A stretch of DNA of 40,000 nt from Agarivorans gilvus (GTDB taxonomy: Bacteria; Pseudomonadota; Gammaproteobacteria; Enterobacterales; Celerinatantimonadaceae), in NCBI RefSeq assembly GCF_001420915.1, contig NZ_CP013021.1, positions 2,428,361 to 2,468,360 of the forward strand, written 5' to 3'. This document shows, in pieces, positions 15,027 through 27,288 of the stretch; position 1 is the first letter of the stretch; each line of letters opens with the position of its first letter. The notes beneath the pieces are model-generated. The model made no database searches, was not told where the DNA came from, and was given only the letters and a program-made list of their open reading frames with translations. The translations under genes were made by a program, and so were the position numbers.

Positions 15027-15436
15027 CTCCTACAACAACTCTAAAATTGTAATAATGGTGGCCAACTAAAAATAATCAGCCACGGCTCGAGCTGCTGCTT
15101 CTTTAAGTTGAAGAGCTCTACGACTGGTATTTTATTTCAAACGAAAAAGTGATTTTTCTATCAGAAGATTCTTGAAGAAGAAACTAATAACAACTAATAC
15201 ATTGTGTCACAACGCGGATTCGCTACGACAGAATCGCTTGGTGATCACAACACACGGACTTGGCCTCGAAACTCAGTTTTGGACAGAAATAAGTTAGATC
15301 ACTAACACTAGCGCAACCAATTGAGATTACGAAAAGTATGTCATACATCGAAACTACGTTAAGGACAGTTTTGGAGTAATGTATTATGTAGTAAGAAAGT
15401 CAAAACTGGCCGCAAACTCAATATCCATCGTTTGTA

Positions 15437-16063
15437 TCACCCTGCTACATCATAGAAAATCTCATCGGCTCGTCGGTCAAGCTCATTAGTGTGATTTGTT
15501 AGACCTCTCAACCTGTCATCCCAAGTTTCAATAGCCAACAAGATGATTTCTCGTGATGTTGCCTTGTCGATTACACTAGAAGGAGTTACAAACTGTTCAT
15601 TAACTGAATCAGTGTACAAAGATGCTTCTCTTAGCTCGACTAACCCACCAGCTTCCGCCATATCCAATAAGGCTCTAACTCGATCCTTACCAATAGCTTT
15701 AGGCAATCGAGAACCAATGGCGATAACTTCTTGAAGAGCAATGACGTGCTTTGCTCGATGATTGTAGAGCTTATCTTGTCGTTGCTTCTTTACCTCCTCT
15801 GGCTCTCCCATACTGCGAAACATTGCAACTTCAAGCTTGGCGATTTCCTCAATGGCAGATATCGCCAGAAAGACGGGCACATGGTAAATGCCTGACTTGT
15901 AGAGTTGATATGCACTTTCAAAGAGTGAAAGCACATGGTCACAGCCACTATTGAACTCTTCTATTACATTAGCTTTGTTGAAGATGTTTCGACCTTTGCC
16001 GATTGCCTCACCAACAACTATTGCCTTTCTAATTGCTATAGCTTTGTCTATGTCCACCAGCAC
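15437..16063 (-). CDS. AbiV-like abortive-infection protein (HEPN-like helical protein)
   Basis: 208-aa ORF with a GTG start. All-helical composition. Blocks AISAIEEIAKLEV and LYNHRAKH resemble my recollection of the AbiV family. Divergent from the RexAB-like pair. This is a recollection-level assignment only. Confidence 0.45.
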   Translation of the reverse strand: MLVDIDKAIAIRKAIVVGEAIGKGRNIFNKANVIEEFNSGCDHVLSLFESAYQLYKSGIYHVPVFLAISAIEEIAKLEVAMFRSMGEPEEVKKQRQDKLYNHRAKHVIALQEVIAIGSRLPKAIGKDRVRALLDMAEAGGLVELREASLYTDSVNEQFVTPSSVIDKATSREIILLAIETWDDRLRGLTNHTNELDRRADEIFYDVAG

Positions 16064-16204
16064 ACCCAGCCCATTATTGATAGTTTTCTAAGTATGAATT
16101 ACATTACTATTCTCTGGCCCAATTCATATTCAAGGTTAGAGAAATGTATACTATAAACTATTATGCAACATGTTATTAAGAAGTAATATCAAAAGGGACA
16201 GTTA

Positions 16205-17236
16205 ATGAAGCTACGCTATTTCGGCTATCACTTGCGTAAGTTTGACACTCAAAAGACGTTTCTATTCAACATCAAGTCAATCGTTGACGCATTCATTAGC
16301 TCTAACAATATGGAGCTAAAGAGCAGCTTTAAGCGTGGTGATGACAAACTATATTTGACCCACATTGCGGGACAAAAGAACGTCTATTACTTCGTCCGTA
16401 CCAGTGACGATGATCTAATCAAACGTATCAACGAGCAAAACCTAACGGTCAGTGACATCACAGATAAGCTATCTGCTAATGAAAAGGTCGCTTATGTATC
16501 GTATGTGTATTTGAATGACACAGACAACATCATGGCATGTGCAAGTAGCACTAGCTGTCCTCGATTTGATGATTTTGCGGATTACATCAACGAGTTGTTT
16601 AACAAGGTCGGTCTTAAAAACTATGACTTCTTCATTGATGCTCTGACATCAAACAGTAACAAAGCCGATTTGATGAATATGGAAATGGTCAACAGTGTGT
16701 ATGTCGATGTTGCAGCAGATAAAAGCCTTGGGAAGTTGATAGCTAAAGAACTGACGGGCAACCCAAATGCTTCACTAGGAAACTTCCGTATTACGATTGA
16801 GCCAACAGGATCGAATCTAAAGCAAACATTTGTTAATATGCTGGCCCGCTTAGCACCTACAGGTAAAGCAAAAAACACTCAAGGTGTCATTCGAATCGGT
16901 GCTAAAGCGAAGCACAACGAGCTAAAAGGACAGTTGAATGACTATTGGTTGGATAATGAGAACAACCTAACAGACAACCTAAACCCTAAAGCTAAGACGA
17001 AGTTACCAGATCAGATCACGGCAAAGCACGATGAGAACTCGTATCTGGACAACCTGTATAAAGCATACGTTAAGAACAAGAACCTGAAATCTGAAGCGGA
17101 TACATTACTGGCGACGTATGCAGACAAGACACAGTTTGCAAAGAAAGCCAAAAATCAAGTAACTCAAGCTGATGCTGAACCAGCAAATGACGAACCGACA
17201 ACTTTAGTACCACTAAACTCTGAAGCGACTAGCTAA
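16205..17236 (+). CDS. RexA-like protein (sensor half of a RexAB-type abortive-infection pair) with a long Lys/Asn-rich C-terminal extension
   Basis: The N-terminal 210 aa align by eye with lambda RexA as I recall it. Ours: YYFVRTSDDDLIKRINEQNLTVSDITDKLSANEKVAYVSYVYL; lambda: FLFTKTNDKSLVQKINRSKASVEDIKNSLADDESLGFPSFLFV. Ours: DLMNMEMVNSVYVDVAAD; lambda: DVMHMHFIGRTTVKVEAK. Ours: FRITIEP; lambda: LDIVIKP. Tightly linked to the next gene (one base between its stop and the next ATG). Confidence 0.6.
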   Translation: MKLRYFGYHLRKFDTQKTFLFNIKSIVDAFISSNNMELKSSFKRGDDKLYLTHIAGQKNVYYFVRTSDDDLIKRINEQNLTVSDITDKLSANEKVAYVSYVYLNDTDNIMACASSTSCPRFDDFADYINELFNKVGLKNYDFFIDALTSNSNKADLMNMEMVNSVYVDVAADKSLGKLIAKELTGNPNASLGNFRITIEPTGSNLKQTFVNMLARLAPTGKAKNTQGVIRIGAKAKHNELKGQLNDYWLDNENNLTDNLNPKAKTKLPDQITAKHDENSYLDNLYKAYVKNKNLKSEADTLLATYADKTQFAKKAKNQVTQADAEPANDEPTTLVPLNSEATS

Positions 17237-17237
17237 A

Positions 17238-17702
17238 ATGACCAGAACTGAGATTGCAAAACTAAAGAAAGTTATATGGTTCACGCCTCTACTTGGTGTG
17301 ATCTTTGGCTTTGCATATCTTGGCCTCAAAGCTCATTTTGATTGGGCTTTTGGCTTCACTGAAGTCCGTACACTATCAACAATAGTTGCAGGGTTCAGCT
17401 TCACGATGCAGGGTTTCCTAGCTGCTATCGCTGCATTTCTCTTTTCATTGCAGAAGTACCGATTCTTCAAGAGATGGGTGGAAGATGGTAACTCTGAAGT
17501 TTTCTTTACTCTCTTTAAAGTTGCATTCGTTTGTCTGTTCATCACCTTTGGGTTCAGCTTATTCGTGTTCACATCTCAAGGGCAAGGCTTTGCATTCAAA
17601 GCAATGATGATGTCTGTAACCAACAACATCATCCAGCTTTGCATAATAACCATTATCATCATGGACAAGGTGTTTAAAGCTCGTGAGAGTGACGTCACCT
17701 AA
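17238..17702 (+). CDS. RexB-like small 4-TM membrane protein
   Basis: 154 aa with four clear hydrophobic helices. Same size and topology as lambda RexB (144 aa, 4 TM). Its ATG lies one base after the stop of the RexA-like gene. Confidence 0.55.
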   Translation: MTRTEIAKLKKVIWFTPLLGVIFGFAYLGLKAHFDWAFGFTEVRTLSTIVAGFSFTMQGFLAAIAAFLFSLQKYRFFKRWVEDGNSEVFFTLFKVAFVCLFITFGFSLFVFTSQGQGFAFKAMMMSVTNNIIQLCIITIIIMDKVFKARESDVT

Positions 17703-17840
17703 TTCAACTCTATAATTAGAGTCGTGGAAGTGGGGGCAAGTCTTGCCTCTTGCCATTCATTACTTTTTGTATATCAAACCTAGCAAAGTATCCGAAATAG
17801 TGATTCGAGCCTAGGCTCACTTTGGGGCAGTTTTGATTTC

Positions 17841-17954
17841 ATTACGCAACGTGCGTTTCATAAGTTGCGTAATAACAGTGAAAGACGCTTTGAGGCAGAG
17901 GTGATTTACGAAACAACTTGTTTCGCAATTGTGCAAGAGGCGGTTGCATAATTG
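17841..17954 (+). repeat. Hairpin-module element, copy A (three stem-loops)
   Basis: Three stem-loops: ATTACGCAAC-N13-GTTGCGTAAT (17841-17873), CGAAACAA-c-TTGTTTCG (17909-17925), and CAATTGTGCAA-gaggcgg-TTGCATAATTG (17926-17954). Bases 17903-17957 align at about 70 percent with 23253-23307, with compensatory stem changes. Confidence 0.6.
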
Positions 17955-18238
17955 AAGTTTGGCATGCCAGCTATCAGTCAGTCTTATGGCAAAGAAAACC
18001 CCAGTTATACATTTGTGAATAAATTCATGTCAGTCGAGTTTGAGCTGATACTCCGTTGGACACTGTTCATTATTACTGCGTCACTTACATAAAAGCGTCG
18101 GCGGCGCTACATGTACTCTTATTCGACATATGCATATTTCAGTTTTAACTAAAATTTGAAATGCGGCACGTTTTATAACTTATTGTTATTCTATTATTTT
18201 GGTATCCAAACCACACAAAACCGTAGTAGGAGATATCA

Positions 18239-18367
18239 ATGGGCATAAAACCTGGGCCAAAGAGAAAAAATGAAGACGGAACACCCGATAAACGACAGCG
18301 TGTCCGTCCAGAAACAAAGAAAAAACACCCAAAACTAAAAGAGCATAACCACGAGAAAGGTGATTAA
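18239..18367 (+). CDS. Possible 42-aa highly basic peptide
   Basis: ATG preceded by GTAGGAGAT (a good RBS). Encodes MGIKPGPKRKNEDGTPDKRQRVRPETKKKHPKLKEHNHEKGD. Followed by the stem-loop GATAAAGCAGC-N8-GCTGCTTTATC at 18375-18404. Below the track length cut-off, and no homologue recognised. Confidence 0.3.
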   Translation: MGIKPGPKRKNEDGTPDKRQRVRPETKKKHPKLKEHNHEKGD

Positions 18368-18749
18368 ACTCTATGATAAAGCAGCCTACTTAAGCTGCTT
18401 TATCAATAGCTCCCACAGCCTAAGCAAATAATATTTGACGACTGTACTACCTCAATATTCTGAATAAGCCAGCCAACTTGTTTTTCTAGCACACCTTCTT
18501 AAAAATGTTCAACCATATGATTATTATGAAAATATCACATGCGCCTTCAACAAAATCGAGCAAAAGATCAGAAAATGAGACTTGTTAGATTGTCTAAGTG
18601 CATGGATGCCCACGCATAAGGAAAAGTAGGAAAAATACCAGAGTTGTGAATTGAGGCGTAAGCCTGTTGAAACACGTTTTGGGGCACAAACGTGCTAGTA
18701 CGCCTTAAGCGACAAACACAGGACAAAATTTCGTCCCGTATCATTACCT

Positions 18750-20012
18750 TTATTTGCAGCTAATAAGTGGAATATGTCGCCAATCCGTCGTGTATTGAGG
18801 CGTGAGCATATCCCTTCGCATATGCCACTTGGGGCTGATACCTTGTGAGCCTAGAAACATTGTGCCACTGCCGTAGCGTTGATTTAATGCATCAACAGCT
18901 TTCATTAGTTCTGGTCGGCCCGGCTTTGCCGTAAACATATCCAGTTGTTGATACTGTTCATCAATTAAATCTATAAGGCCCACGCCGACTTTGTAGTATT
19001 TGATACCTGGAATAAATAGTTGGGGTATTGCTTGTGAGACCAGCTGACTAATCACAATGGTATCGTTAGTTGCACAAGCGGGCCGCAGCAACTGCTTAAA
19101 GCCTCGACTGATACCATCATCAAACGGCGAGTTATGTGCAAATATTAAAATCGCACCGACTACGCTACCTTGCTCTCTTGCTTTTAAACATGCACAGCTC
19201 ACATGCAGTGAAAATGCTTGCATCAACGAGTGTAGCTCCAGTATTCGTTGGCCAGTGCTTCTCGTTGAGAAAATTTGCTGCTTATTCGCTCGCGCTTCAT
19301 CCCATGATTTTGCGGATACACCGTTAAGTTCGAGTATCGTTCTCTCCATCTCCACGCTGAAATGCTGCTTAGCAAGCTTCGGTGGCATATTCGCCAACTT
19401 GTATCCGGTTGTTATTCCCATGTCTTTGAGACGTATGCTTAACTTTCGGCCCACTCCCCACACATCGGACACACACATTTGAGATAAAATACGGTCTCTT
19501 TGTTCATTATGCTCAATCACACAAACCCCATTGAAACCAGGTAAACGTTTAGCAGCATGATTGGCGACCTTACACAGCGTCAGCGTTTTTCCAAACCCCA
19601 CACAAACGGGTAAACGCACTTCTTTCCAAACAGTTCGACGGATTTGCTTTCCCAGAACCTCAAGCGGGGGCAGAGCCTCACAGGCATTTGATACATCTAT
19701 GAAGGTTTCATCAATACTGTATACATGTTGTCTTGGAGCAAATGCGCCAATGATTTGCATCATATGCATCGATAAATCTGCATATAGCTCATAGTTTGAC
19801 GAGCATACAATGACACCTTTTTTTTCGCACAATGATTTAATCTGGAAAAAAGGTTTAAAGCGCTCGATACCAATAGCTTTAGCCAAACGATTTACAGCAA
19901 CCACACAACCGTCGTTGTTGCTCAGTACTATGATTGGTTTGTTGCGCCAATCAGGGCGAAACACCGCTTCCGCTGAACAATAAAAACTATTGGCATCAAC
20001 AAGCGCAAACAT
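18750..20012 (-). CDS. umuC: Translesion DNA polymerase V catalytic subunit UmuC (Y-family)
   Basis: 420 aa. The N-terminus MFALVDANSFYCSAEAVFRPDWRNKPIIVLSNNDGCVVA is the canonical UmuC/Y-family start. Its start codon overlaps the umuD stop (ATGA). Confidence 0.9.
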   Translation of the reverse strand: MFALVDANSFYCSAEAVFRPDWRNKPIIVLSNNDGCVVAVNRLAKAIGIERFKPFFQIKSLCEKKGVIVCSSNYELYADLSMHMMQIIGAFAPRQHVYSIDETFIDVSNACEALPPLEVLGKQIRRTVWKEVRLPVCVGFGKTLTLCKVANHAAKRLPGFNGVCVIEHNEQRDRILSQMCVSDVWGVGRKLSIRLKDMGITTGYKLANMPPKLAKQHFSVEMERTILELNGVSAKSWDEARANKQQIFSTRSTGQRILELHSLMQAFSLHVSCACLKAREQGSVVGAILIFAHNSPFDDGISRGFKQLLRPACATNDTIVISQLVSQAIPQLFIPGIKYYKVGVGLIDLIDEQYQQLDMFTAKPGRPELMKAVDALNQRYGSGTMFLGSQGISPKWHMRRDMLTPQYTTDWRHIPLISCK

Positions 20013-20419
20013 TAAAGCAGTTTCAGCAAACGAGACGGCCGGTGACAGCGTATAGAGCGGATAACGACGCCTTCTACAGTAAACCTATCACAACTACTGA
20101 CAGCTACTGGGCCATAGTGTTCATTGGCTGATAGGAGCATACGTCTTGATTTATCGATAATCTTACACACAAACTCGCCGTTGATATTTGCGACAATGAC
20201 ATCACCACTCTCTACATGGACGTGACGGTCAACAATCAATACATCCCCATCGTGTATACCGCTACCCAACATTGAGTCTCCGGACGCTAGACCGATAAAT
20301 GTGGCTGATGGATGCTCAATAAGTAAGTCATCTAAACTCAGTGGGAGTTGCGAATATTCAGTCGCGGGGGATTCAAAACCTGTAAGGCCAGCACTCGCTA
20401 GAATAGGGATTACTTTCAT
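20012..20419 (-). CDS. umuD: UmuD, S24 LexA-like self-cleaving peptidase subunit of Pol V
   Basis: 135 aa. Has an Ala-Gly cleavage-type site near the N-terminus (ASAGLTGF), Ser nucleophile context SGDSM, and a downstream Lys (FVCKII). Sits directly upstream of umuC. Confidence 0.9.
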   Translation of the reverse strand: MKVIPILASAGLTGFESPATEYSQLPLSLDDLLIEHPSATFIGLASGDSMLGSGIHDGDVLIVDRHVHVESGDVIVANINGEFVCKIIDKSRRMLLSANEHYGPVAVSSCDRFTVEGVVIRSIRCHRPSRLLKLL

Positions 20420-20431
20420 TAAAGTCTTACA

Positions 20432-20447
20432 CTGTATTTATATACAG
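20432..20447. promoter_or_regulatory. LexA (SOS) box CTGTATTTATATACAG upstream of umuD
   Basis: Perfect CTGT-N8-ACAG palindrome 13 bp upstream of the umuD start codon. Confidence 0.85.
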
Positions 20448-20672
20448 CAATTATAGATACATTGGGCAAAAAGAGAAACTAGTAATTGCCGTAAAAAAGA
20501 GTCACTTGAATCAGTCTCCGCATAGACGTCAGATGATTGGATGATGTCTGTTCGCGTTTTTACTAAGCCTACCTTTCAGGCATGCAATTACTCTTAAGTG
20601 AGTAATTATCAACTTACAACCATATTGATAGTTATGTTAGATTTGGACTAAAGCCTAACTAAAGGATTTATA

Positions 20673-21410
20673 ATGAAAGCATGGATAGCAATTCCGTTAT
20701 TAGCCTCGGGGTACCTGAACGCTTCTGAATTTCGTACACCAAATTGCCCAATTGGCTGCCCAAGTCTTGATATTGAGGGGAATATAGTCATTTTCGAACG
20801 GCTATACACACTCTCCCAAAATAAGAAAACGAAGTTTGCTGATTGGGTGGCTTATGAAGTCGATGTGCTTAACTTTGGCACAACAACTAACAGAACGTGG
20901 AAAAACAATCCTTTACTTGATGAAAATGAACGACTGGAAAAAGATGACTACAGTGGAGCGTCAAGTAAACTCGATATTGACCGTGGACACCAAGCTCCAC
21001 TAGCAAGTTTTGTGGGAAGTCGCTACTGGCCTACCCTTAACTATTTATCCAATATTACGCCTCAAGCTAAAGGTTTAAACCAGGGCCCATGGAAAAACCT
21101 AGAAGAAGCGGTTAGAGATGCTGTTGGGTTTCGTGAAAACCTATATGTTATTACGGGAACACTTTACCTAAATGAAATGGAAGACTTACCAAAAGCCGAT
21201 GAAGCTCATGCCATACCATCTGATTACTACAAAATTATATATGATGATAAAGGCAACTCTGCCGCGTTCCTAATGAACCAGCAATCAACCAGGGATACAG
21301 ACTACTGCACGACAAAGAAAACAATCTCTGAATTAAGGGCTATCGTGCCATATACCATTCCTGAAGGCTTAGCTGACAGCAATGTAATTTTTGCACGACT
21401 AGGTTGCTGA
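20673..21410 (+). CDS. Secreted DNA/RNA non-specific endonuclease (Endonuclease_NS / NucA family)
   Basis: 245 aa with signal peptide MKAWIAIPLLASGYLNASE. Carries the family active-site motif DRGHQAP (DIDRGHQAPLASF). RBS AAGGA upstream. Confidence 0.8.
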   Translation: MKAWIAIPLLASGYLNASEFRTPNCPIGCPSLDIEGNIVIFERLYTLSQNKKTKFADWVAYEVDVLNFGTTTNRTWKNNPLLDENERLEKDDYSGASSKLDIDRGHQAPLASFVGSRYWPTLNYLSNITPQAKGLNQGPWKNLEEAVRDAVGFRENLYVITGTLYLNEMEDLPKADEAHAIPSDYYKIIYDDKGNSAAFLMNQQSTRDTDYCTTKKTISELRAIVPYTIPEGLADSNVIFARLGC

Positions 21411-21538
21411 ATGTAATTCAAATATCTAGGGGGAAACTTGCTCAACCGACCTCCGAATAAGATGCTCTAGCTCATCTTTGGACATTTCCGAGTTAAAGCC
21501 TTAACTCTAACTCGTCAGTTTCGGATAAATATTTCTAT

Positions 21539-21641
21539 GGGTTAACGCTTTGCTCAGCCGCCGCCGGAATGGAGCTGCTTTGTGCTAGCGTAGCGTACAG
21601 CACAAAGCGAGCGGAGTGTAGGCGCAACAATTTGTTATGCC
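21539..21641 (-). repeat. Roughly 100-nt imperfect palindrome, attC-like (candidate integron-cassette recombination site), or a bidirectional terminator
   Basis: On the - strand it starts GCATAAC (containing the TAA stop of the HNH-like ORF) and ends GTTAACC. These approximate R'' (RYYYAAC) and R' (GTTRRRY), with one mismatch each. Central stem GCTGCTTTGTGCT / AGCACAAAGC(g)AGC has a bulge. The complement GTTATGC recurs just upstream of the same ORF (22952-22959). No intI is present in the window. Confidence 0.3.
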
Positions 21642-22915
21642 TTTTCTGCTTCCACTAGTCGAATAGTTTCGTTGATTGACACTTCATTGATGCTATTTAA
21701 ACAGTCAAATCGCCAGCCACTTACTAAACTGTAGTGTTTAAAGGTATTCCAGAACTTTTGGTAATCTTCATCGTTTGAAAAGTCAACATTATCCTTTTTA
21801 CTAAAAGGAATTATGTATACATAAACAACGCTACCAAGCCTAAACTCTGAAACAACGTGCGGTATATCGGAGTCATCTATTTTGCGAACGTAGTTGGTAA
21901 TTTGAGGTACTTTAGAAAACCCACTATGAACAATATTTACAGCGACATTAGGTAAGCATAACTCTTTCTGATCATCGGTTTTCATCCACGTTATAGTTTG
22001 CTTAAGATCCGCTACATGCTCTTCATCAATTGTAGACAGTGTAATTTTACACAGCGCCTTGTAAAGTTTTGCTGGAGTGAACCTTTTTGTAGAATCCAAA
22101 TGAACTTTTATTTCCTTGTCGCTTACCGTCTCTATATTTTGGGATGCGACAATTGGCATATTGTTTACAACTTGCATGTGCCCATTTTTGTATTTTATTT
22201 TGGGAGTTCCGCTTTTCCCCTTTACACCAAGGAATACCCGATATATGTCTAAATGTTCGATCAGTGATGGTTCGATATTATTTCCAAAGAATTCATTGCA
22301 ATCGTCACATTCGTCACCAAGAATTATATTTTTGTTTCCAAGAGCCTCAGGGATCGCATGAGCCACCTTTCTGAAGGTGGCACCTTCATTCAAAGTTTTA
22401 TTGCAAAACCTACAGCAACGACTTTCTTTTTTTGCATTTCCTATAATTGTTCTTCTGTCATTCCTAGGGAGATTCAAGTTGTACTTTGATGTTAAATCCC
22501 CCGAAAATTCATCCAAAACACGCATTTTTGCTTCAAAATTTGACTGTAGTTCTTCTGTATTGCCAAACTCATTTAGAGTAGAAATGTATGTTTCTAGCTT
22601 TAACTTTTCCGACGTGTCAGTCGGTATAGACGGAAGCACTAAAAAATATTCATTGGTTGATAGATTTTCTATTTTGCTCTTCAGCCTGTTTAAAATCGGA
22701 TGAGAGCTTGCATACTTGACGACAAAGTCAGAGACTTTTTGCTTTAAATCTTCTGTCAATTTCTGCTCTGAAGAAACTTTTAAGGTGTTGTCTTTAATAT
22801 CGCCAAAGCATGCCAACAGCTCTAAATATACAGTACCAGTTTCTTCGTTAGCTGGCTGAAGGTTGATACCAAAGCCATCACCTTCTGTCATAAAGCAAAT
22901 ATTGTAACTTTCCAT
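21635..22915 (-). CDS. HNH-like (HNH_5-type) nuclease-domain protein with unknown N- and C-terminal regions
   Basis: 426 aa. The central block CRFCNKTLNEGATFRKVAHAIPEALGNKNIILGDECDDCNEFFGNNIE follows the CxxC...H...CxxCN pattern of HNH endonucleases. About 170 aa on the N side and 200 aa on the C side are not recognisable to me. Confidence 0.5.
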   Translation of the reverse strand: MESYNICFMTEGDGFGINLQPANEETGTVYLELLACFGDIKDNTLKVSSEQKLTEDLKQKVSDFVVKYASSHPILNRLKSKIENLSTNEYFLVLPSIPTDTSEKLKLETYISTLNEFGNTEELQSNFEAKMRVLDEFSGDLTSKYNLNLPRNDRRTIIGNAKKESRCCRFCNKTLNEGATFRKVAHAIPEALGNKNIILGDECDDCNEFFGNNIEPSLIEHLDIYRVFLGVKGKSGTPKIKYKNGHMQVVNNMPIVASQNIETVSDKEIKVHLDSTKRFTPAKLYKALCKITLSTIDEEHVADLKQTITWMKTDDQKELCLPNVAVNIVHSGFSKVPQITNYVRKIDDSDIPHVVSEFRLGSVVYVYIIPFSKKDNVDFSNDEDYQKFWNTFKHYSLVSGWRFDCLNSINEVSINETIRLVEAEKA

Positions 22916-23258
22916 ACTAGATTTCCGTAATCAATTTGCCACCGCACTGTAGGCATAACATCTTAGTATTGATGTCCTGTGCGGTTTGCTGGGAATCAAT
23001 CGATGTTGGACTTGGCAACTGCCACATCCGGATTATTTGGTATTAATCATGCTATAGGAATTTGCTTTTTTACGGTAGGGGGTTCTTTAACCGATTGAAG
23101 ACTAATTGCTTGAATTATTTTATGCTTTATCGCCCTACGACTTGCACTGTCCCAGTAATAGTGGACACGCTTAATCATTACTAAAATTTGGTCAACTGGA
23201 TTGCTTAAATTGGAAAGGCTCTGACATCCGTACCTCCGAATGGGGCATAAGTAATTTA

Positions 23259-23387
23259 TGAAACAAGCTGTTTCACATTTTTGCAAGAACCTCTTGCAAA
23301 ATTAGGGACGAGAATTTGTCCAACAGGCTGTTGGACATTTGTTGAATCAGACTACTTTCTAATTGTGCAACAGCTTGCTGCACAATT
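23259..23387 (+). repeat. Hairpin-module element, copy B (four consecutive stem-loops with 3-nt loops)
   Basis: Four stem-loops: TGAAACA-agc-TGTTTCA (23259-23275), TTTTGCAAGA-acc-TCTTGCAAAA (23279-23301), TGTCCAACA-ggc-TGTTGGACA (23317-23337), and AATTGTGCAaCAg-ctt-gcTGCACAATT (23361-23387). An alternative stem GGAC-N8-GTCC (23306-23321) overlaps the third. Confidence 0.6.
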
Positions 23388-23548
23388 GACGTAGATGGAA
23401 ATTGTACTGAAAAAGCGATAAAACCGTGGCCAGTTTTACTTGACCACTACATAGGTTATTACAGCCAAATCAGGCCTTACCAATTTTCGCACTCATGTAA
23501 GTATCAGAATCGCGTTTAGCTAATCATTAAATCTCGACCGAGTTCATA

Positions 23549-23854
23549 TTAGGCATAGTTAAAATGATGCTTCATAAAAAAATCCAGATAGCATCCTCTT
23601 TCTAACGTTCTTTCTTCGATCTGCTTCCACAACACGGGTAAATAGGTCTTAAGAACTTCAGCAGCCGATTGATAGTATTCATCCACACAGTCCCCATCAG
23701 CTGCTTTTAGCCAATCAGAAGGAGTTAAAAGGGTCAATCCTTGGTGGTAGTATTCAGGAATAGCTTTACGAATTGATTCTTCAGTGCCGCTGGCGACATA
23801 AATTGTAACGCCTTCACCCGTCGCGTAATAATGGCTAACTCCTACATAAAACAT
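23549..23854 (-). CDS. Hypothetical protein (about 101 aa)
   Basis: The track ORF is 23549-23896. I prefer the ATG at 23854 (MFYVGVSHYYATGEG...), which has AGGAG 6 nt upstream. No family recognised. Confidence 0.5.
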   Translation of the reverse strand: MFYVGVSHYYATGEGVTIYVASGTEESIRKAIPEYYHQGLTLLTPSDWLKAADGDCVDEYYQSAAEVLKTYLPVLWKQIEERTLERGCYLDFFMKHHFNYA

Positions 23855-24407
23855 ATTAACTCCTGACATCCTATTGCTTAATGAAAGTAACTTCACTGAT
23901 AATAAAAATTCTTAAACTCCAACACATTTCTGAAAACGCCCTAACTAGCATAATAAGTCATTAACCATAATGTAAGGTTCGTTCTGAAACATTTTTGAGG
24001 CATAAGCATTGCCAGCAATGTCTGGATGTTCAGGTAGATTTGAACTCGACAGGTTACAAGCATATACTGCTGATGCTTGCTATGAGAAACGTGGCTTCGG
24101 CTCCACTCGTAGACAGATTAATCCAAATAACCCTGTTCTCTTCCGCTCATAGAGTATTGACCACAGGTAGCAGAACAAGAGCCACTAACAGTGGCTCTTG
24201 TCGTATCTAAGTGTTAGAAAAGTTGAGGTATCCCCCTTCAACATTGCCACTTTCATATGTGGGGCGTAACACATTTGGGGGCAGAATTTTCTTAGACTAA
24301 TCACTTAAGTTAGGAAAGTACGGATTGTCTATAAACAGGTGTCGGGAAGCACCTTTTGTTAAATGCGTCCTCTGAGAAATTCAATTGAGGCCAAGCTTAC
24401 TTTATTA

Positions 24408-24716
24408 TTATGATTTAAAAGACACCTTAGACTTATCAATACCAAAACTTTCATCTGGAAGCTCTTGGCTTTTGTCAAACATGACAATACTTCTGCGATG
24501 CTCCTTTAACGCGGAAAGAGCAATTTTAAAACAGCCTTCACATAAATCTAGGTGATAGCAGCTACCATCTTCTTTAGAACCGTATCCCCATTGAGCATTG
24601 AGTTTTCCTGCTTCTTCAATTTTATGGCCATTGACGTCTACCATTAGGCTTTCACCACAAACGTCGCAGACACTATCTATCATAGTCTCAACATATTGTT
24701 TCCCATATATTTTCAT
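24408..24716 (-). CDS. Small zinc-ribbon-like protein (two CxxC pairs), function unknown
   Basis: 102 aa with CDVCG ... CEGCF. Sits 50 bp downstream of the cREC-like gene on the same strand, so probably co-transcribed. Confidence 0.55.
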   Translation of the reverse strand: MKIYGKQYVETMIDSVCDVCGESLMVDVNGHKIEEAGKLNAQWGYGSKEDGSCYHLDLCEGCFKIALSALKEHRRSIVMFDKSQELPDESFGIDKSKVSFKS

Positions 24717-24766
24717 ATAGATACTCTTGGTTAGTATTATTAGTTAACGTTAGCAATACTTTGAAC

Positions 24767-25081
24767 TTAAGCCAACGGTGACTTGTTATGTCTTTGAACA
24801 ATATGATTGATGTTTTTAATACCTAGCTCCATCTTTTGACGCGCCGATGAGTTTGCAGAGTGCACTTTCATTTTGGGTGGGACAAATTGATTAAGCAATG
24901 CCTGCTCTTCTATCCAAAGCACAACATCATATCCAGTGCCGTGGTCATCATTTCCGAGATCATGGTCTAAGCTAATTTCTGTTACTTCACCTGTTTTCAG
25001 CAATTCTATGGCTTCCTCCGGCCAATATACTCTTACCCACCCTTCAGGTGTCTCTCGTTCATCATCTAGGTAAACTTTCAT
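24767..25081 (-). CDS. Receiver-like small protein resembling the cyclic-phosphate-processing receiver (cREC) family
   Basis: 104 aa. MKVYLDDERETPEGWVRVYWPEEAIELL...ISLDHDLG matches my recollection of the MK.fLDDeR.P.GW...SLDHDLG pattern of these phage/island-borne receiver-fold proteins. RBS GGAG upstream. Confidence 0.5.
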   Translation of the reverse strand: MKVYLDDERETPEGWVRVYWPEEAIELLKTGEVTEISLDHDLGNDDHGTGYDVVLWIEEQALLNQFVPPKMKVHSANSSARQKMELGIKNINHIVQRHNKSPLA

Positions 25082-25266
25082 GTCTTTACTCCATGTTCAC
25101 ACCCGACAGAGCATGTCGTAGCATGGTGAATTTTAATAGCCTGATATACTTTTACCAATCCACAAAAATCAGGAAAAATTAAAAGTTATGCAACGTACGA
25201 CGCCTCCCCAACACAAATTAAAACATGACTACCTTTAAAATATACCTCGCTAGTATGATATCGAAT

Positions 25267-25346
25267 GCGTTACGCAACTTGCGTAACGCAACTTGCGTAA
25301 CGCAACTTGCGTAACGCAACTTGCGTAACGCAGCTTGCGCAATTGC
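25267..25346. repeat. Tandem repeat, 14-bp unit GCGTAACGCAACTT, about 5.7 copies; fully self-complementary array
   Basis: Copies start at 25267 (variant GCGTTACGCAACTT), then 25281, 25295 and 25309 (identical), then 25323 (GCGTAACGCAGCTT), with a partial GCGCAATTGC at 25337. The array alternates ACGCAA and TTGCGT half-sites with 1-nt spacers. It can therefore pair in many registers (for example TTACGCAA-c-TTGCGTAA). Confidence 0.9.
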
Positions 25347-25497
25347 TATTTCCTTTAATTTTCAATTTCTTAAAGTAAAGTTTGCGCACATCACAAGCTG
25401 AATTGTGCTGCTGTATATAACAGCTAAATCACGAAAACGTCGCCGTCAACGAAGTAGAGAAAACCAACCTTTACATCGTTACTCATTACGTCTGTGG

Positions 25498-26520
25498 CTA
25501 GAAAATATTTAGGCCAAATATGTCTTTGATATCAAAGAGCACTTTATCTGTCTTTTCTCGTGAAACTTGACTTCCTGCCTTCAAAATGTCGATTAGTTGT
25601 GCCTTATCATTTAAGTACACGGCTCTTTTTTGTCGAATAGGCCGGAGCATTTCTTGTAAGCATTCTTCTAGGATTCTCTTCGTCACGCCGTCACCTAGTC
25701 CTCCTCGTTGATAGTGTTGCTTTAATTGTTGGACATAGCTTTCATCAGAATGAAAAGCATCTAAATAAGTAAACACCACATTCCCTTCTATCTTGCCGGG
25801 GTCTTCAATTCTTACATGGTGAGGGTCGGTATACATAGACTTGACCGCTGCGGTGATTTCCTTTTCACTCGCTCCTAGATTAATAGTGTTCCCCATCGAT
25901 TTAGACATCTTATTTTTTCCATCGGTGCTGGGTAAGCGTGGCGCTTTGCTTAACAATGGCTGACATTCATTGAGAACATTGCGCCCGGCTAATGCGTTTA
26001 TCTTCCGCACGATTTCATTGGTTTGTTCAAGCATTGGTAATTGGTCGTCACCAACGGGGACTAATGTTGCGTTAAACCCAGTGATATCCGCGGCCTGAGA
26101 GATGGGATACGTTAAGAAACCTGCGGGGATGGAGCGCTCAAATCCTTTATTCTGAATTTCACTTTTAACTGTAGGATTACGCTCTAATCGACTAATAGTA
26201 ACTAGGTTACTGTAATACATAGTGAGTTCGGCAAGCGCTGGTAATTGTGACTGAAGGCATATAGTCGTTGCTGATGGGTCTATCCCTACAGCGAGGTAAT
26301 CCGCCACCACATTTAGAATATTCGATGACACTTTTTGAGGGTGAAGGGCATTGTCTGTCAGGCCTTGCATATCAGCAACAAGAATGGTTTGTTCATGGTG
26401 AGCTTGTAAAGCGACACGCTGCTTTAAAGAACCAACGTAATGGCCTAGGTGTAATGGGCCAGTCGCTCTATCACCGGTTAAAATAACCTCTGATTTATCC
26501 GTTTTATGTTGTGTATTCAT
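25498..26520 (-). CDS. trpS: Tryptophan--tRNA ligase, TrpRS-II type paralogue (auxiliary trpS)
   Basis: 340 aa. HIGH-type motif GPLHLGHYVG and KMSKS motif present. Overall it resembles the Deinococcus TrpRS-II type (TGDR.TG.LHLGH, LVADMQGLTD, VPVGDDQLPMLEQT) rather than the housekeeping gammaproteobacterial TrpS. RBS GAGGAG upstream. Confidence 0.9.
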   Translation of the reverse strand: MNTQHKTDKSEVILTGDRATGPLHLGHYVGSLKQRVALQAHHEQTILVADMQGLTDNALHPQKVSSNILNVVADYLAVGIDPSATTICLQSQLPALAELTMYYSNLVTISRLERNPTVKSEIQNKGFERSIPAGFLTYPISQAADITGFNATLVPVGDDQLPMLEQTNEIVRKINALAGRNVLNECQPLLSKAPRLPSTDGKNKMSKSMGNTINLGASEKEITAAVKSMYTDPHHVRIEDPGKIEGNVVFTYLDAFHSDESYVQQLKQHYQRGGLGDGVTKRILEECLQEMLRPIRQKRAVYLNDKAQLIDILKAGSQVSREKTDKVLFDIKDIFGLNIF

Positions 26521-26623
26521 CGGTATATCTCCTCGTCAAATAAATTGGCCACTGGAGATACAAAAGAGATGACATTCTTAGCTACCTACCAGCAGCATAA
26601 GAATGTAAGAATTCTGTGCCGCT

Positions 26624-26677
26624 CTAATGAGAGCGCCACCAAAGAATAGATAATGTAGGCATTGGAATATTATTCAT
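26624..26677 (-). promoter_or_regulatory. Candidate trpL-like leader peptide ORF (MNNIPMPTLSILWWRSH*) of a Trp-sensing attenuator for the auxiliary trpS
   Basis: 17-codon ORF about 100 nt upstream of trpS with tandem TGG TGG codons (26636-26641), ending WWRSH-stop. E. coli TrpL ends GWWRTS-stop. The Trp codons lie inside the stem GGCGCTCT-catt-AGAGCGGC. Downstream is a 12-bp bulged hairpin ACATTCTTAtGCT...AGCTAAGAATGT followed by CATCTCTTTTG. No clear SD precedes the ORF; a possible -35/-10 pair (TTGTCT-N17-TAGATT, 26684-26712) would make it nearly leaderless. Confidence 0.5.
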
Positions 26678-27288
26678 GACAGGAATCTAACAATAATCAA
26701 GTTAGGAGACAAGCGTTTGAGCGCTCCCTTAGCATCTATGTAGGCAACTCGTTGGCTTTACTCTAAGTTTAAGCGTCAAATTGCTTCTTCGGTTATAAAC
26801 TAGCTACCAATGATAAAAGTACTGTGTTTTTAATGTTATCGAGAACAAACATTAGATGATGAAATTTCCTGGCAACTCGACCTGAATTTTGTCCGTTTGT
26901 AATTACAGTGCGGGTTACAGAGCGACATGTGTAGTGAATTACTGGATTCAGCCTGTCAAAATGGCGAGTCTTTGAGCACTTTGAAGGCCCGTATGAGAGA
27001 CCCAATAATTTTTACCCTTTTCCGGCGTAGTGTTTTCACCTAGGCCGTAAAACACAGCACCAATTACTGAATTATTCCAATGTCCCCTCAAGTAAATTCC
27101 CGCGTAATTTACACACATATAGAAATGATTCATCAGACAAATTGTCTACTGACTGTGTAAGCGAGGAGTGCTTATCTGATGTATTTAGGTGCCTGTTTGG
27201 TAAGGTCTGAAAACTTTATATAAACGCTACCCTTCAAAAGAGACCGTTAAAGCAGTTTTTCGAATACACTTAACTTTGAGTTCCGCAC

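Follow-up and report, generated by a model that had tools for sequence, protein, structure and literature searches.

In concept, the DNA element described here appears to stand nearest to two kinds of system: palindromes that live between and inside genes, such as REP/BIME sequences, Rickettsia palindromic elements (RPEs) and PARCELs, and cassette arrays partitioned by short sites. The element is a 27-bp palindromic unit (PU). Four copies form an array (array 1) at positions 23254-23387 of a 40,000-nucleotide stretch of the Agarivorans gilvus chromosome (contig NZ_CP013021.1; the whole stretch is called the window below), and further copies lie in frame inside genes of the DUF1016/YhcG nuclease family.

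REP/BIME sequences are short imperfect intergenic palindromes that occur in clusters, keep their structure by compensatory changes and are tied to a family of HUH-type single-stranded DNA (ssDNA) enzymes, and the PU array resembles them in these respects. However, REP/BIME sequences, which depend on RAYT HUH transposases, reach tens to hundreds of copies per genome, whereas PU arrays are found at about one locus per genome, the two arrays within the 40 kb of the window lying in one island. REP/BIME stems also stand beside a GTAG-type tetranucleotide and go together with a RAYT (Y1 HUH), whereas the PU has ATTTG/CAAAT flanks, no GTAG and no RAYT-like open reading frame (ORF) in the window. Moreover, the PU also occurs in frame inside a protein gene. 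By copy number, GTAG and RAYT (the last looked for in the window only), the PU is not a member of REP/BIME.

RPEs and PARCELs (PMC2996958) share with the PU the presence of palindromes in frame, on either strand, with variable copy number and horizontal spread, and they are probably the best conceptual precedent for the units in the DUF1016 linker. RPEs are 100-150 bp long, whereas the PU has 27 bp (8 codons), is tied to a single nuclease family and exists as free arrays between putative recombination sites as well. PARCELs are 25-aa DUF285/TIGR02167 repeats of surface proteins (PMC2996958); the PU belongs to a different repeat family with different sequences and was rejected as a PARCEL.

The IS91/ISCR insertion sequences (ISs) offer another likeness, since an element with a Y2 transposase ends in GGGGCA beside a PU array in plasmid pVPS62, and the remnant of an IS91 end lies by the array in the window. 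However, the array is outside the IS, most modules have no IS91 gene nearby, and the published IS91 cleavage tetranucleotides, CTCG and GTTC, are unlike the GGGGCA site. As in integron cassette arrays and Xer dif-like systems, short co-oriented sites partition unrelated accessory genes, and the recombinase borne by the IS is Xer/integron-integrase-like. The conserved AAC/GTT beside complementary variable positions in the PU may recall the R boxes of attC sites. The attC sites are folded and 57-141 bp long, whereas the GGGGCA sites measure about 30 bp and the PU hairpins are separate 12-bp stems rather than one long bulged hairpin. Furthermore, the window holds no integrase or attI, and no GTTRRRY/RYYYAAC pair bounds its segments; by eye, GTCCAAC...GTTGGAC was seen in unit c only. 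Taken together, these observations lean against an attC identity. By analogy, the array may also be likened to the single-strand origins and initiation signals (ssoA, G4-type, Frpo) of rolling-circle plasmids and phages, elements with a single-stranded stage, in which adjacent hairpins over 100-200 nt work only as ssDNA, but those signals are strand-specific with family-specific conserved loops, whereas the PU is strand-symmetric with variable loops and has no linked replication or transfer genes. Literature searches in the open-access corpus, which also covered IS91 elements with a tyrosine recombinase, returned no description of the PU, of palindromes in DUF1016/YhcG or of the GGGGCA site.

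The palindromic unit and its symmetry

The four hairpin-forming palindromes that the first-pass annotation had reported at 23254-23387 were confirmed: a repeat finder returned perfect stems of 7, 10 and 9-10 bp together with one 12-bp stem carrying a single mismatch. The window has 12 hairpins with a perfect stem of 7 bp or more and a loop of 3 nt, compared with 3.0 +/- 1.7 in dinucleotide-preserving shuffles, and three of the 12 lie inside 80 bp at the array. A cluster of three such stems was reached by 0/300 whole-window shuffles, and at least three such stems by 0/5000 shuffles of the array region. The hairpin clustering is therefore not matched by shuffled controls, and a chance origin is ruled out. 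Folded as ssDNA, the + strand forms four separate hairpins (-32 kcal/mol, z = -5.7), as does the - strand folded as RNA (z = -5.4). Additionally, the stems are kept in related genomes, with compensatory changes. The hairpins thus pass both of the refutation tests proposed in the first-pass annotation.

The stems had been described as differing in sequence and not being copies of one operator. They align, however, as direct-repeat families with 68-79% identity and shared boxes, and are four diverged copies of a single 27-bp unit with the consensus aATTTG-NNN-AACA-NNN-TGTT-NNN-CAAATt. The outer boxes (ATTTG/CAAAT) and the inner boxes (AACA/TGTT) are conserved, and the triplet between them varies from unit to unit (TGA/TCA, TGC/GCA, TCC/GGA) with complementarity kept. 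We defined the family as a 12-3-12 palindrome with outer ATTTG/CAAAT boxes, inner AASA/TSTT boxes and complementary variable triplets. All four window units (a to d, Table 1) conform to this definition: they pair at 9-11 of the 12 positions and match the boxes at 13-16 of 18. Unit a has TGA/TCA where the orthologous units of other Vibrio have CGA/TCG, which is a compensatory change. Unit b is kept in pVPS62, Photobacterium, V. owensii and others. Unit d (GCAACA/TGCTGC) is a one-step intermediate between the units of two other loci, L087 (GCAGCA/TGCTGC) and L110 (GCAACA/TGTTGC). The unit scan also found a second array (array 2), unseen in the first-pass annotation, with a type a unit at 17904-17930 and a type b unit at 17927-17953. 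The isolated hairpins at 24175, 17744 and 27134, which had been called similar, lack the unit boxes and are not members of the family. The first of these (24175-24201) is a perfect 12-bp hairpin (ACAAGAGCCACT-AAC-AGTGGCTCTTGT) outside the unit family; the GGGGCA site at 24265 follows about 65 nt downstream.

Relatives of the PU were found at 119 genome, 8 metagenome and 47 viral or mobile genetic element (MGE) loci. The 119 genome loci came from a scan for the c-type pattern TTTGTCCARCAGNCTGTTGG in one genome per species, and they cover many phyla, including one nanohaloarchaeal metagenome-assembled genome. Nearly all of them hold the entire 27-bp palindrome, including the bases beyond the scan pattern, and at least two units with other complementary triplets are present in 34.

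An alignment of 12 modules showed 86.5% of hairpin cells paired, compared with at most 44.5% in slid registers. Nine pairs had changed on both sides, and the covariation score was reached by 0/500 shuffles. Among units selected by their boxes alone, the triplets were fully complementary in 28 of 36, where chance would give 1/64, and at least seven triplet identities were represented. Imperfect pairs showed no G.U bias, either in the non-coding modules on either strand (7 G.U-type, 10 A.C-type) or in the mRNA strand of DUF1016 genes (3 G.U-type, 9 A.C-type). Rfam 15 gave no match at gathering thresholds, and the best permissive hits reached 13-19 bits against cut-offs of 44-68 and belonged to eukaryotic snoRNA/miRNA families. 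Given the missing Rfam match and the missing G.U strand bias, the symmetry of the PU looks as though it is maintained at the DNA level and not in RNA. An mRNA hairpin in DUF1016 genes was rejected for want of a sense-strand G.U bias. The structured non-coding RNA that had been proposed for the array is likewise not supported, with no Rfam match, no strand bias of G.U over A.C and a separate terminator before the array.

An intrinsic (Rho-independent) terminator was also rejected, the units having no T tracts and a separate terminator-like hairpin with a T run being present (Table 1). Because that hairpin lies between the 115-aa ORF and array 1, the array is not the terminator of this gene. The statement that none of the hairpins is followed by a T tract was slightly too strong, as unit c is followed by TTTGTT and was scored terminator-like by a simple scan; this call is weak and the only one among the units. 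A phage-type operator array of a dimeric helix-turn-helix repressor was excluded as well: the array had no phage match (blastn), no regulator is adjacent or shared, and the complementary covariation of the triplets is incompatible with it.

The unit within DUF1016/YhcG genes

In 67 of the 119 loci the unit lies within or beside DUF1016 coding homology. ORFs of 1.1-1.4 kb were confirmed as DUF1016_N plus YhcG_C, the latter a PD-(D/E)XK domain, and DUF1016/YhcG is the PADLOC candidate defence family PDC-S02; it has no relative in PDB. One to five units occupy the linker directly before the conserved IPWGHN. Translated in frame, a unit gives x-V-Q-Q-(P/A)-V-x-Q (e.g., TTT GTC CAA CAG CCT GTT GGA CAA). 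Owing to the palindromy of the DNA, reversing the unit changes the peptide only by a central P/A swap. All 27 inter-unit spacings in DUF1016 arrays are multiples of three (24, 39, 48, 63, 72). The four unit types of the window all exist as linker peptides (IAKQPVSQ, FTQEPLAQ, FVQQPVGQ and FVQQLVAQ); in DUF1016 genes, type b encodes FTQEPLAQ and type c, the type of the 119 genome loci, reads FVQQ(P/A)VGQ.

Since the unit scan pattern had biased the first sample, DUF1016 genes were also drawn from viral and MGE contigs by linker-independent peptide patterns (KDPY[IVR]FD, YW[EQ]LG...). The 33 distinct 8-codon units of this sample had a mean of 10.5/12 pairs, compared with 6.0/12 after synonymous resampling with each gene's own codon usage (Wilcoxon p = 5e-7), and 31 of the 33 were individually extreme in palindromy. 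Moreover, the linker residues covary in a way that keeps the DNA symmetry: Q-Q-x-V, Q-E-P-L, Q-T-V-S and Q-E-V-P correspond to AACA/TGTT, AAGA/TCTT, AGAC/GTCT and AGGA/TCCT, respectively. An in-frame palindrome spread across phyla was unexpected. The observation of the array itself is robust; any mechanism behind it is putative.

The remaining 52 genome loci have no DUF1016 homology within 1.5 kb. Besides Vibrio-type modules, they include DUF1016 micro-remnants, such as L113 (FVQQPVGQMPWGHN|LPSIEQIERELGGQ*), and, in several phyla, lone units that lie between genes of type I restriction-modification (R-M) systems or only a few bases ahead of divergent genes. Intact AT-rich units in genomes of 64-72% GC are also among them. 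In two Endozoicomonas species (L013, 462-488; L046, 488-514), a DUF1016 gene is broken exactly at the unit, and opposite halves are joined to the same unrelated DNA. Many PDC-S02 sub-profiles are either N-terminal-only, ending at residue ~100-115 (the linker starts at about 110), or C-terminal-only, which fits frequent gene splitting at the palindromic linker. The Endozoicomonas breaks and the PDC-S02 fragments suggest that the PU behaves as a rearrangement hot spot. Some type I R-M hsdM/hsdS ORFs next to DUF1016 genes (L014, 2656-4842; L105, 1-1464; L108, 501-2273) contain an inserted segment, ...VVDFYCNEQKLVIELDGAIHN..., which by eye resembles a DUF559-type endonuclease domain.

Cassette-like modules, GGGGCA sites and IS91-family DNA

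Outside DUF1016 genes, window-type modules were found at about 16 loci in addition to the window, in a dozen Vibrio species (including V. cholerae ATCC 14035), Photobacterium and Pseudoalteromonas, with about one module per genome in the collection of species-representative genomes. In plasmids, blastn found the b-c part at 81-87% identity in twelve MOBH Vibrio plasmids of about 200 kb and a Photobacterium megaplasmid, and 12 of these 13 records show it in the same context; blastn gave no match in phages or E. coli. The order within a module is TTGGGGCA, GAARTAATTCA, two to five units (a, b, c, d) and AAATAAATCTCATGATGGTTTCATGCGTTCTAAACACGTCTTGGGGCA. The module, including the head and tail that are not PU, is 80-90% conserved in more than 12 species with unrelated flanks, and its orientation relative to neighbouring genes is not conserved. 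Inter-unit spacings are 23, 36-38 and 47 nt, 26 of 31 not being multiples of three, and stops between the units leave short open stretches. No DUF1016 homology was detected at E <= 1 when three DUF1016 proteins were compared by tblastn with the window and 15 other modules, conceptual translations of the modules did not match Pfam DUF1016_N, and nothing in DUF1016 genes corresponds to the ~45 nt of tail that separate the last unit from the site. The array in the window is a non-coding, cassette-like module. It was not accepted as a DUF1016 pseudogene decaying in place, since there is no flanking homology or Pfam match, spacings of 23/37/47 break the frame and only the 27-bp units are common to both.

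The nearest relative of the b-c part of array 1, spacer included, is in V. owensii. The window copy matches the module consensus through unit d and then diverges. In V. cholerae ATCC 14035 (L059, 1331-7481), the neighbours of the module are a 200-aa serine recombinase and an operon whose three ORFs encode 819, 729 and 178 aa; the product of 729 aa has tyrosine-recombinase-like motifs by eye, and the set is reminiscent of GInt/SE-type integrative elements. A relationship of the array to such strand-biased circularising elements was rejected, as their ends are 13-19-bp terminal repeats unrelated to the array.

The modules are bracketed in direct orientation by a site of about 30 bp, YTCTAA-N5-7-YTTGGGGCA-N4-YGNGTTAG, which contains the TTGGGGCA motif and has inverted arms, e.g., GCTCTAAACACG TCTTGGGGCATTTT CGTGTTAG. 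The same site also ends an element composed of an IS91-family transposase and a recombinase. Beyond the sites the flanks are unrelated between genomes, and foreign DNA is joined exactly at GGGGCA. For example, L012 and L038 share the module and the right flank and diverge on the left exactly at GGGGCA, and pVPS62 diverges from a V. owensii plasmid exactly at GGGGCA|AAAT. In pVPS62 (L001/L173), the 129 bp to the right of the backbone GGGGCA (as in V. owensii plasmid p2, L005) are duplicated: one copy is in place, and the other abuts the end of the IS/array segment, with GGGGCA|AAAT as the junction. The joined segment holds radC, a serine recombinase, arr, the IS91 + recombinase element and the array. 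At these junctions, the GGGGCA site behaves as a breakage-joining point. It can be read as an 11-6-11 Xer-type core with GGGGCA as the centre, or as a short stem with a 16-nt loop and an HUH nick site.

A profile built from 26 sites found copies in the window on the + strand only and in the island only (Table 1). The similarity of array 1 to other modules starts at the GGGGCA of the 23241 site, the same position as the left sites of 12 other modules. These sites divide the island into co-oriented segments: AbiV + RexAB, array 2, umuDC + nuclease, HNH + IS remnant, array 1 + 115-aa ORF, and so on.

Table 1. Positions of units, sites and associated features in the window
Feature	Position	Strand	Details
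Degenerate GGGGCA-type site (weak)	15266..15297	+	E = 0.33; left edge of the low-GC island, GC drop starts nearby
GGGGCA site	17810..17838	+	E = 0.006; after rexB
Second module (array 2)	17881..17953	+	Two units and a left site (17881-17909); 63 nt at 76% identity to array 1
GGGGCA site	18667..18697	+	TTGAAACACGTTTTGGGGCACAAACGTGCTA; best in the window, E = 5e-7; between array 2 and umuC; exact match to AACACNTNTTGGGGCA
Degenerate site (weak)	21466..21495	+	E = 3; arms fit the pattern TCTAGCTCATCTTTGGACATTTCCGAGTTA; between the non-specific endonuclease and HNH genes
IS91-family end remnant, transposase-distal (oriIS-side)	22954..23136	+	183 bp; 92-94% identical to Shewanella xiamenensis plasmid copies
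Shared left-flank segment	23164..23197	+	TTAATCATTACTAAAA.TTGGTCAACT; 85% over 34 nt to L039; also seen in the L012 flank
Left GGGGCA site of array 1	23241..23258	+	TGGGGCATAAGTAATTTA; E = 0.19
Unit a	23254..23280		ATTTA TGA AACA AGC TGTT TCA CATTT; 9/12 pairs over 27 nt, perfect 7-bp core
Unit b	23277..23303		ATTTT TGC AAGA ACC TCTT GCA AAATT; 11/12 pairs; 4-nt overlap with unit a
Unit c	23314..23340		ATTTG TCC AACA GGC TGTT GGA CATTT; 10/12 pairs; most conserved unit
Unit d	23361..23387		AATTG TGC AACA GCT TGCT GCA CAATT; 11/12 pairs, one A.C mismatch
Module tail	23388..23425	+	Diverged; partial similarity to the consensus tail AAATAAATCTCATGATGGTTTCATGCG...TTGGGGCA; right-hand GGGGCA site absent
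Terminator-like hairpin with T run	23426..23447	-	Downstream of the 115-aa ORF; promoter/terminator scan
GGGGCA site	24265..24294	+	E = 7e-5; closes the segment begun by array 1

IS91-family DNA accompanies the array in two places. In V. parahaemolyticus pVPS62, an array lies 380 bp upstream of a tyrosine recombinase and IS91-family transposase pair, which was confirmed by Phage_integrase, Y2_Tnp/Zn_Tnp_IS91 and NCBIfam transpos_IS91; the recombinase (276 aa) is Xer/integron-integrase-like, with scores below curated cut-offs. The DNA upstream of this recombinase ends in GTTTTGGGGCAT, and the array follows directly, beyond the GGGGCA terminus. In the window, 22954-23136 shows homology to the DNA that follows the IS91 transposase in pVPS62 and in a P. 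carrageenovora plasmid, and array 1 lies 105 bp from this remnant. Three diverged IS copies in Pseudoalteromonas and Shewanella have the TTGGGGCA end with no array after it, indicating that the array is separable from the IS. Neither these three copies nor the window, which has no transposase gene, agree with the array being part of the IS91 + recombinase element. The stretch 22954-23250 was also rejected as a complete miniature IS, because only 22954-23136 is derived from the IS and 23164-23197 matches the flank of another module.

Interpretation and island setting

The reading that we favour, tentatively and as plausible rather than probable, is that the PU is a DNA-level, recombination-associated hairpin or cruciform module and that the array is a cassette without cargo. 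The PU would be constrained as DNA, would extrude as a hairpin in ssDNA or as a cruciform, and may act as a cis structural signal or break point for recombination. The array would travel as a cargo-less cassette handled by ssDNA-active recombination enzymes, for which an IS91-type HUH transposase and/or its Xer/integron-integrase-like tyrosine recombinase acting at GGGGCA sites are candidates. It would then not be an RNA gene, a terminator or an ordinary operator array. Among the three roles suggested in the first-pass annotation, ssDNA recognition or recombination fits best, in view of the GGGGCA bracketing, the nearby IS91 remnant and the pVPS62 terminus, and this functional assignment stays putative. 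IS91-family elements have terminal palindromes, form ssDNA circles and show frequent one-ended transposition, a read-through by which adjacent DNA is taken up (PMC13181058).

Several points weigh against this reading. The window copy, with its diverged tail and without a right-hand site, may be decaying, and several of the site calls in the window are statistically weak (E 0.19 to 3). Scores of the covariation test are inflated, because its sequences are related and its structure was itself taken from them. Template switching at quasi-palindromes can produce compensatory changes without selection, and covariation is therefore no proof of function. A general association with IS91 was rejected, since only two of ~17 modules (window and pVPS62) have IS91-family DNA within 4 kb; the responsible enzyme may perhaps be a host function.

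The main rival, which we regard as possible though doubtful, is a functionless relic: a DUF1016 linker fragment would have been captured once, e.g., by IS91-type read-through ending at TGGGGNCA of the W-G-H-N codons, and would hitch-hike as junk in a mobile cassette, its palindromes being kept not by selection but by mutational homogenisation through quasi-palindrome template switching or mismatch repair in transient hairpins. That all window unit types exist as DUF1016 linker peptides speaks for such a capture, as do the resemblance of the WGHN codons (TGG GGN CAY AAY) to the TGGGGCATAA site and the frequency of one-ended transposition in IS91. The reading frame is disrupted (spacings of 23/37/47 rather than 24/39), the right-hand end of the window copy is missing, and micro-remnants of DUF1016 reduced to the unit are common. 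However, the relic is weakened by conservation of the whole module, head and tail included, across many species whose flanks are unrelated and carry no further DUF1016 debris. The intact AT-rich palindrome in GC-rich genomes, the missing DUF1016_N signal in translations and the tail without a DUF1016 counterpart also argue against it. A further reading, which we consider unlikely, takes the PU as a self-maintaining DNA element that lives in defence-associated PD-(D/E)XK nuclease (DUF1016/YhcG/PDC-S02) genes of bacteria, their mobile elements and one or more archaea, dictates their linker residues and serves as a hairpin or cruciform substrate or recombination handle of the nuclease or of partner recombinases; the stand-alone arrays of Vibrio defence islands, the present one included, would be its non-autonomous copies, decoys or GGGGCA exchange points for defence cassettes.

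The other alternatives assign the array to binding, RNA or protein. It could be a platform bound by a protein that is dimeric or recognises DNA structure, the most attractive candidate being the DUF1016/PDC-S02 nuclease or its N-domain, with sites in the protein's own gene used for autoregulation or self-marking and stand-alone arrays acting as regulatory sites or decoys. Boxes conserved at fixed positions, the recurrent 23/37-bp spacing, the tight evolutionary link between PU and DUF1016, the lone units near divergent genes or in type I R-M DNA and the location in a defence island are consistent with this. Yet a dimer that reads sequence needs no complementarity at positions it does not contact, and complementarity is kept there; moreover, the triplets differ even inside a single array, which diverged specificities cannot account for, and neither a DUF1016 gene nor an obvious regulator lies in the window or consistently beside the modules. 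We judge such a platform quite unlikely. A transcribed structure, whether a small RNA, a REP/BIME-like stabiliser of 3' ends or a 5'-untranslated regulator of the HNH gene, would agree with the strong predicted RNA folding, the position of the array between two - strand genes and the lone units in 5' leader positions of some genomes. It is nevertheless very unlikely, given the absence of an Rfam family at gathering or permissive thresholds and of a G.U bias in imperfect pairs, the terminator-like hairpin ahead of the array on the - strand with no promoter-like site nearby, and the unconserved orientation of the modules relative to their neighbours. A small protein gene, with an open frame through the module (e.g., ...IHETGCFAIVQDPLAQLDTRVCPTACWTF...FVQQAAAQ...) for a peptide of 40-80 aa, was suggested by ORFs of 70-83 aa that span the module in four Vibrio genomes and by the same frame being open for 47 codons in the window. 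But by construction none of the units contains a stop in any of the six frames, unit c is read in different frames in different genomes owing to 1-nt differences in spacing (36/37/38), and the window offers no ATG or other plausible start and no family match. A small ORF through the array was rejected on this lack of frame conservation, and we hold a protein product to be extremely improbable.

If the reading of the PU as a DNA element in its own right holds, a small DNA palindrome, and not protein function, would shape part of a very widespread candidate anti-phage nuclease, and the same palindrome would circulate as a free-standing cassette in marine Vibrio defence islands. The PU and the GGGGCA sites would then be a handle on the gain and loss of defence-island segments, and the PU a testable substrate for the uncharacterised DUF1016/YhcG family. 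With RPEs and PARCELs, it would also bring to three the cases of elements that act at nucleic-acid level while lying in frame within genes. Annotation gains even if the least interesting reading is correct: the arrays should not be labelled as small RNAs, terminators or small ORFs. The x-V-Q-Q-x-V-x-Q stretch of DUF1016_N should be treated as DNA-constrained in alignments and trees.

The window is part of a marine gammaproteobacterial chromosome in which genes for agar and sugar catabolism flank a low-GC stretch of ~15-27 kb (~15200-27000). This stretch encodes AbiV, RexA/RexB, UmuDC, a DNA/RNA non-specific endonuclease, a 426-aa HNH_5 protein, a cREC_REC protein, a second tryptophanyl-tRNA synthetase (TrpRS) and small unknown ORFs, and is a defence or mobile island of the Vibrio type. 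The genes flanking array 1 are the 115-aa ORF (23549-23896, -) and the HNH gene (21635-22915, -). The ORF at 23047-23286 (-), which overlaps the array, had no family match, and the promoter/terminator scan gave no promoter-like site near the array. The window contains no tRNA, and its ORFs include no DUF1016 gene, obvious regulator, transposase, RAYT-like ORF or integron integrase.

umuDC lies beside arrays or sites in three genomes (window W2, L012, L008), and the UmuC proteins are only 42-57% identical, which suggests a recurrent association rather than one shared island. A second palindromic family is present at segment junctions. Between the TrpRS and cREC_REC genes (25266-25339), a 14-nt tandem repeat, TGCGTAACGCAACT, occurs 5.3 times with a 96% match, and its core TTGCGTAACGCAA is itself palindromic around a centre of 3 nt. 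At 17842-17872, between two GGGGCA sites beside array 2, there is a related copy in inverted form, TTACGCAAC...GTTGCGTAA.

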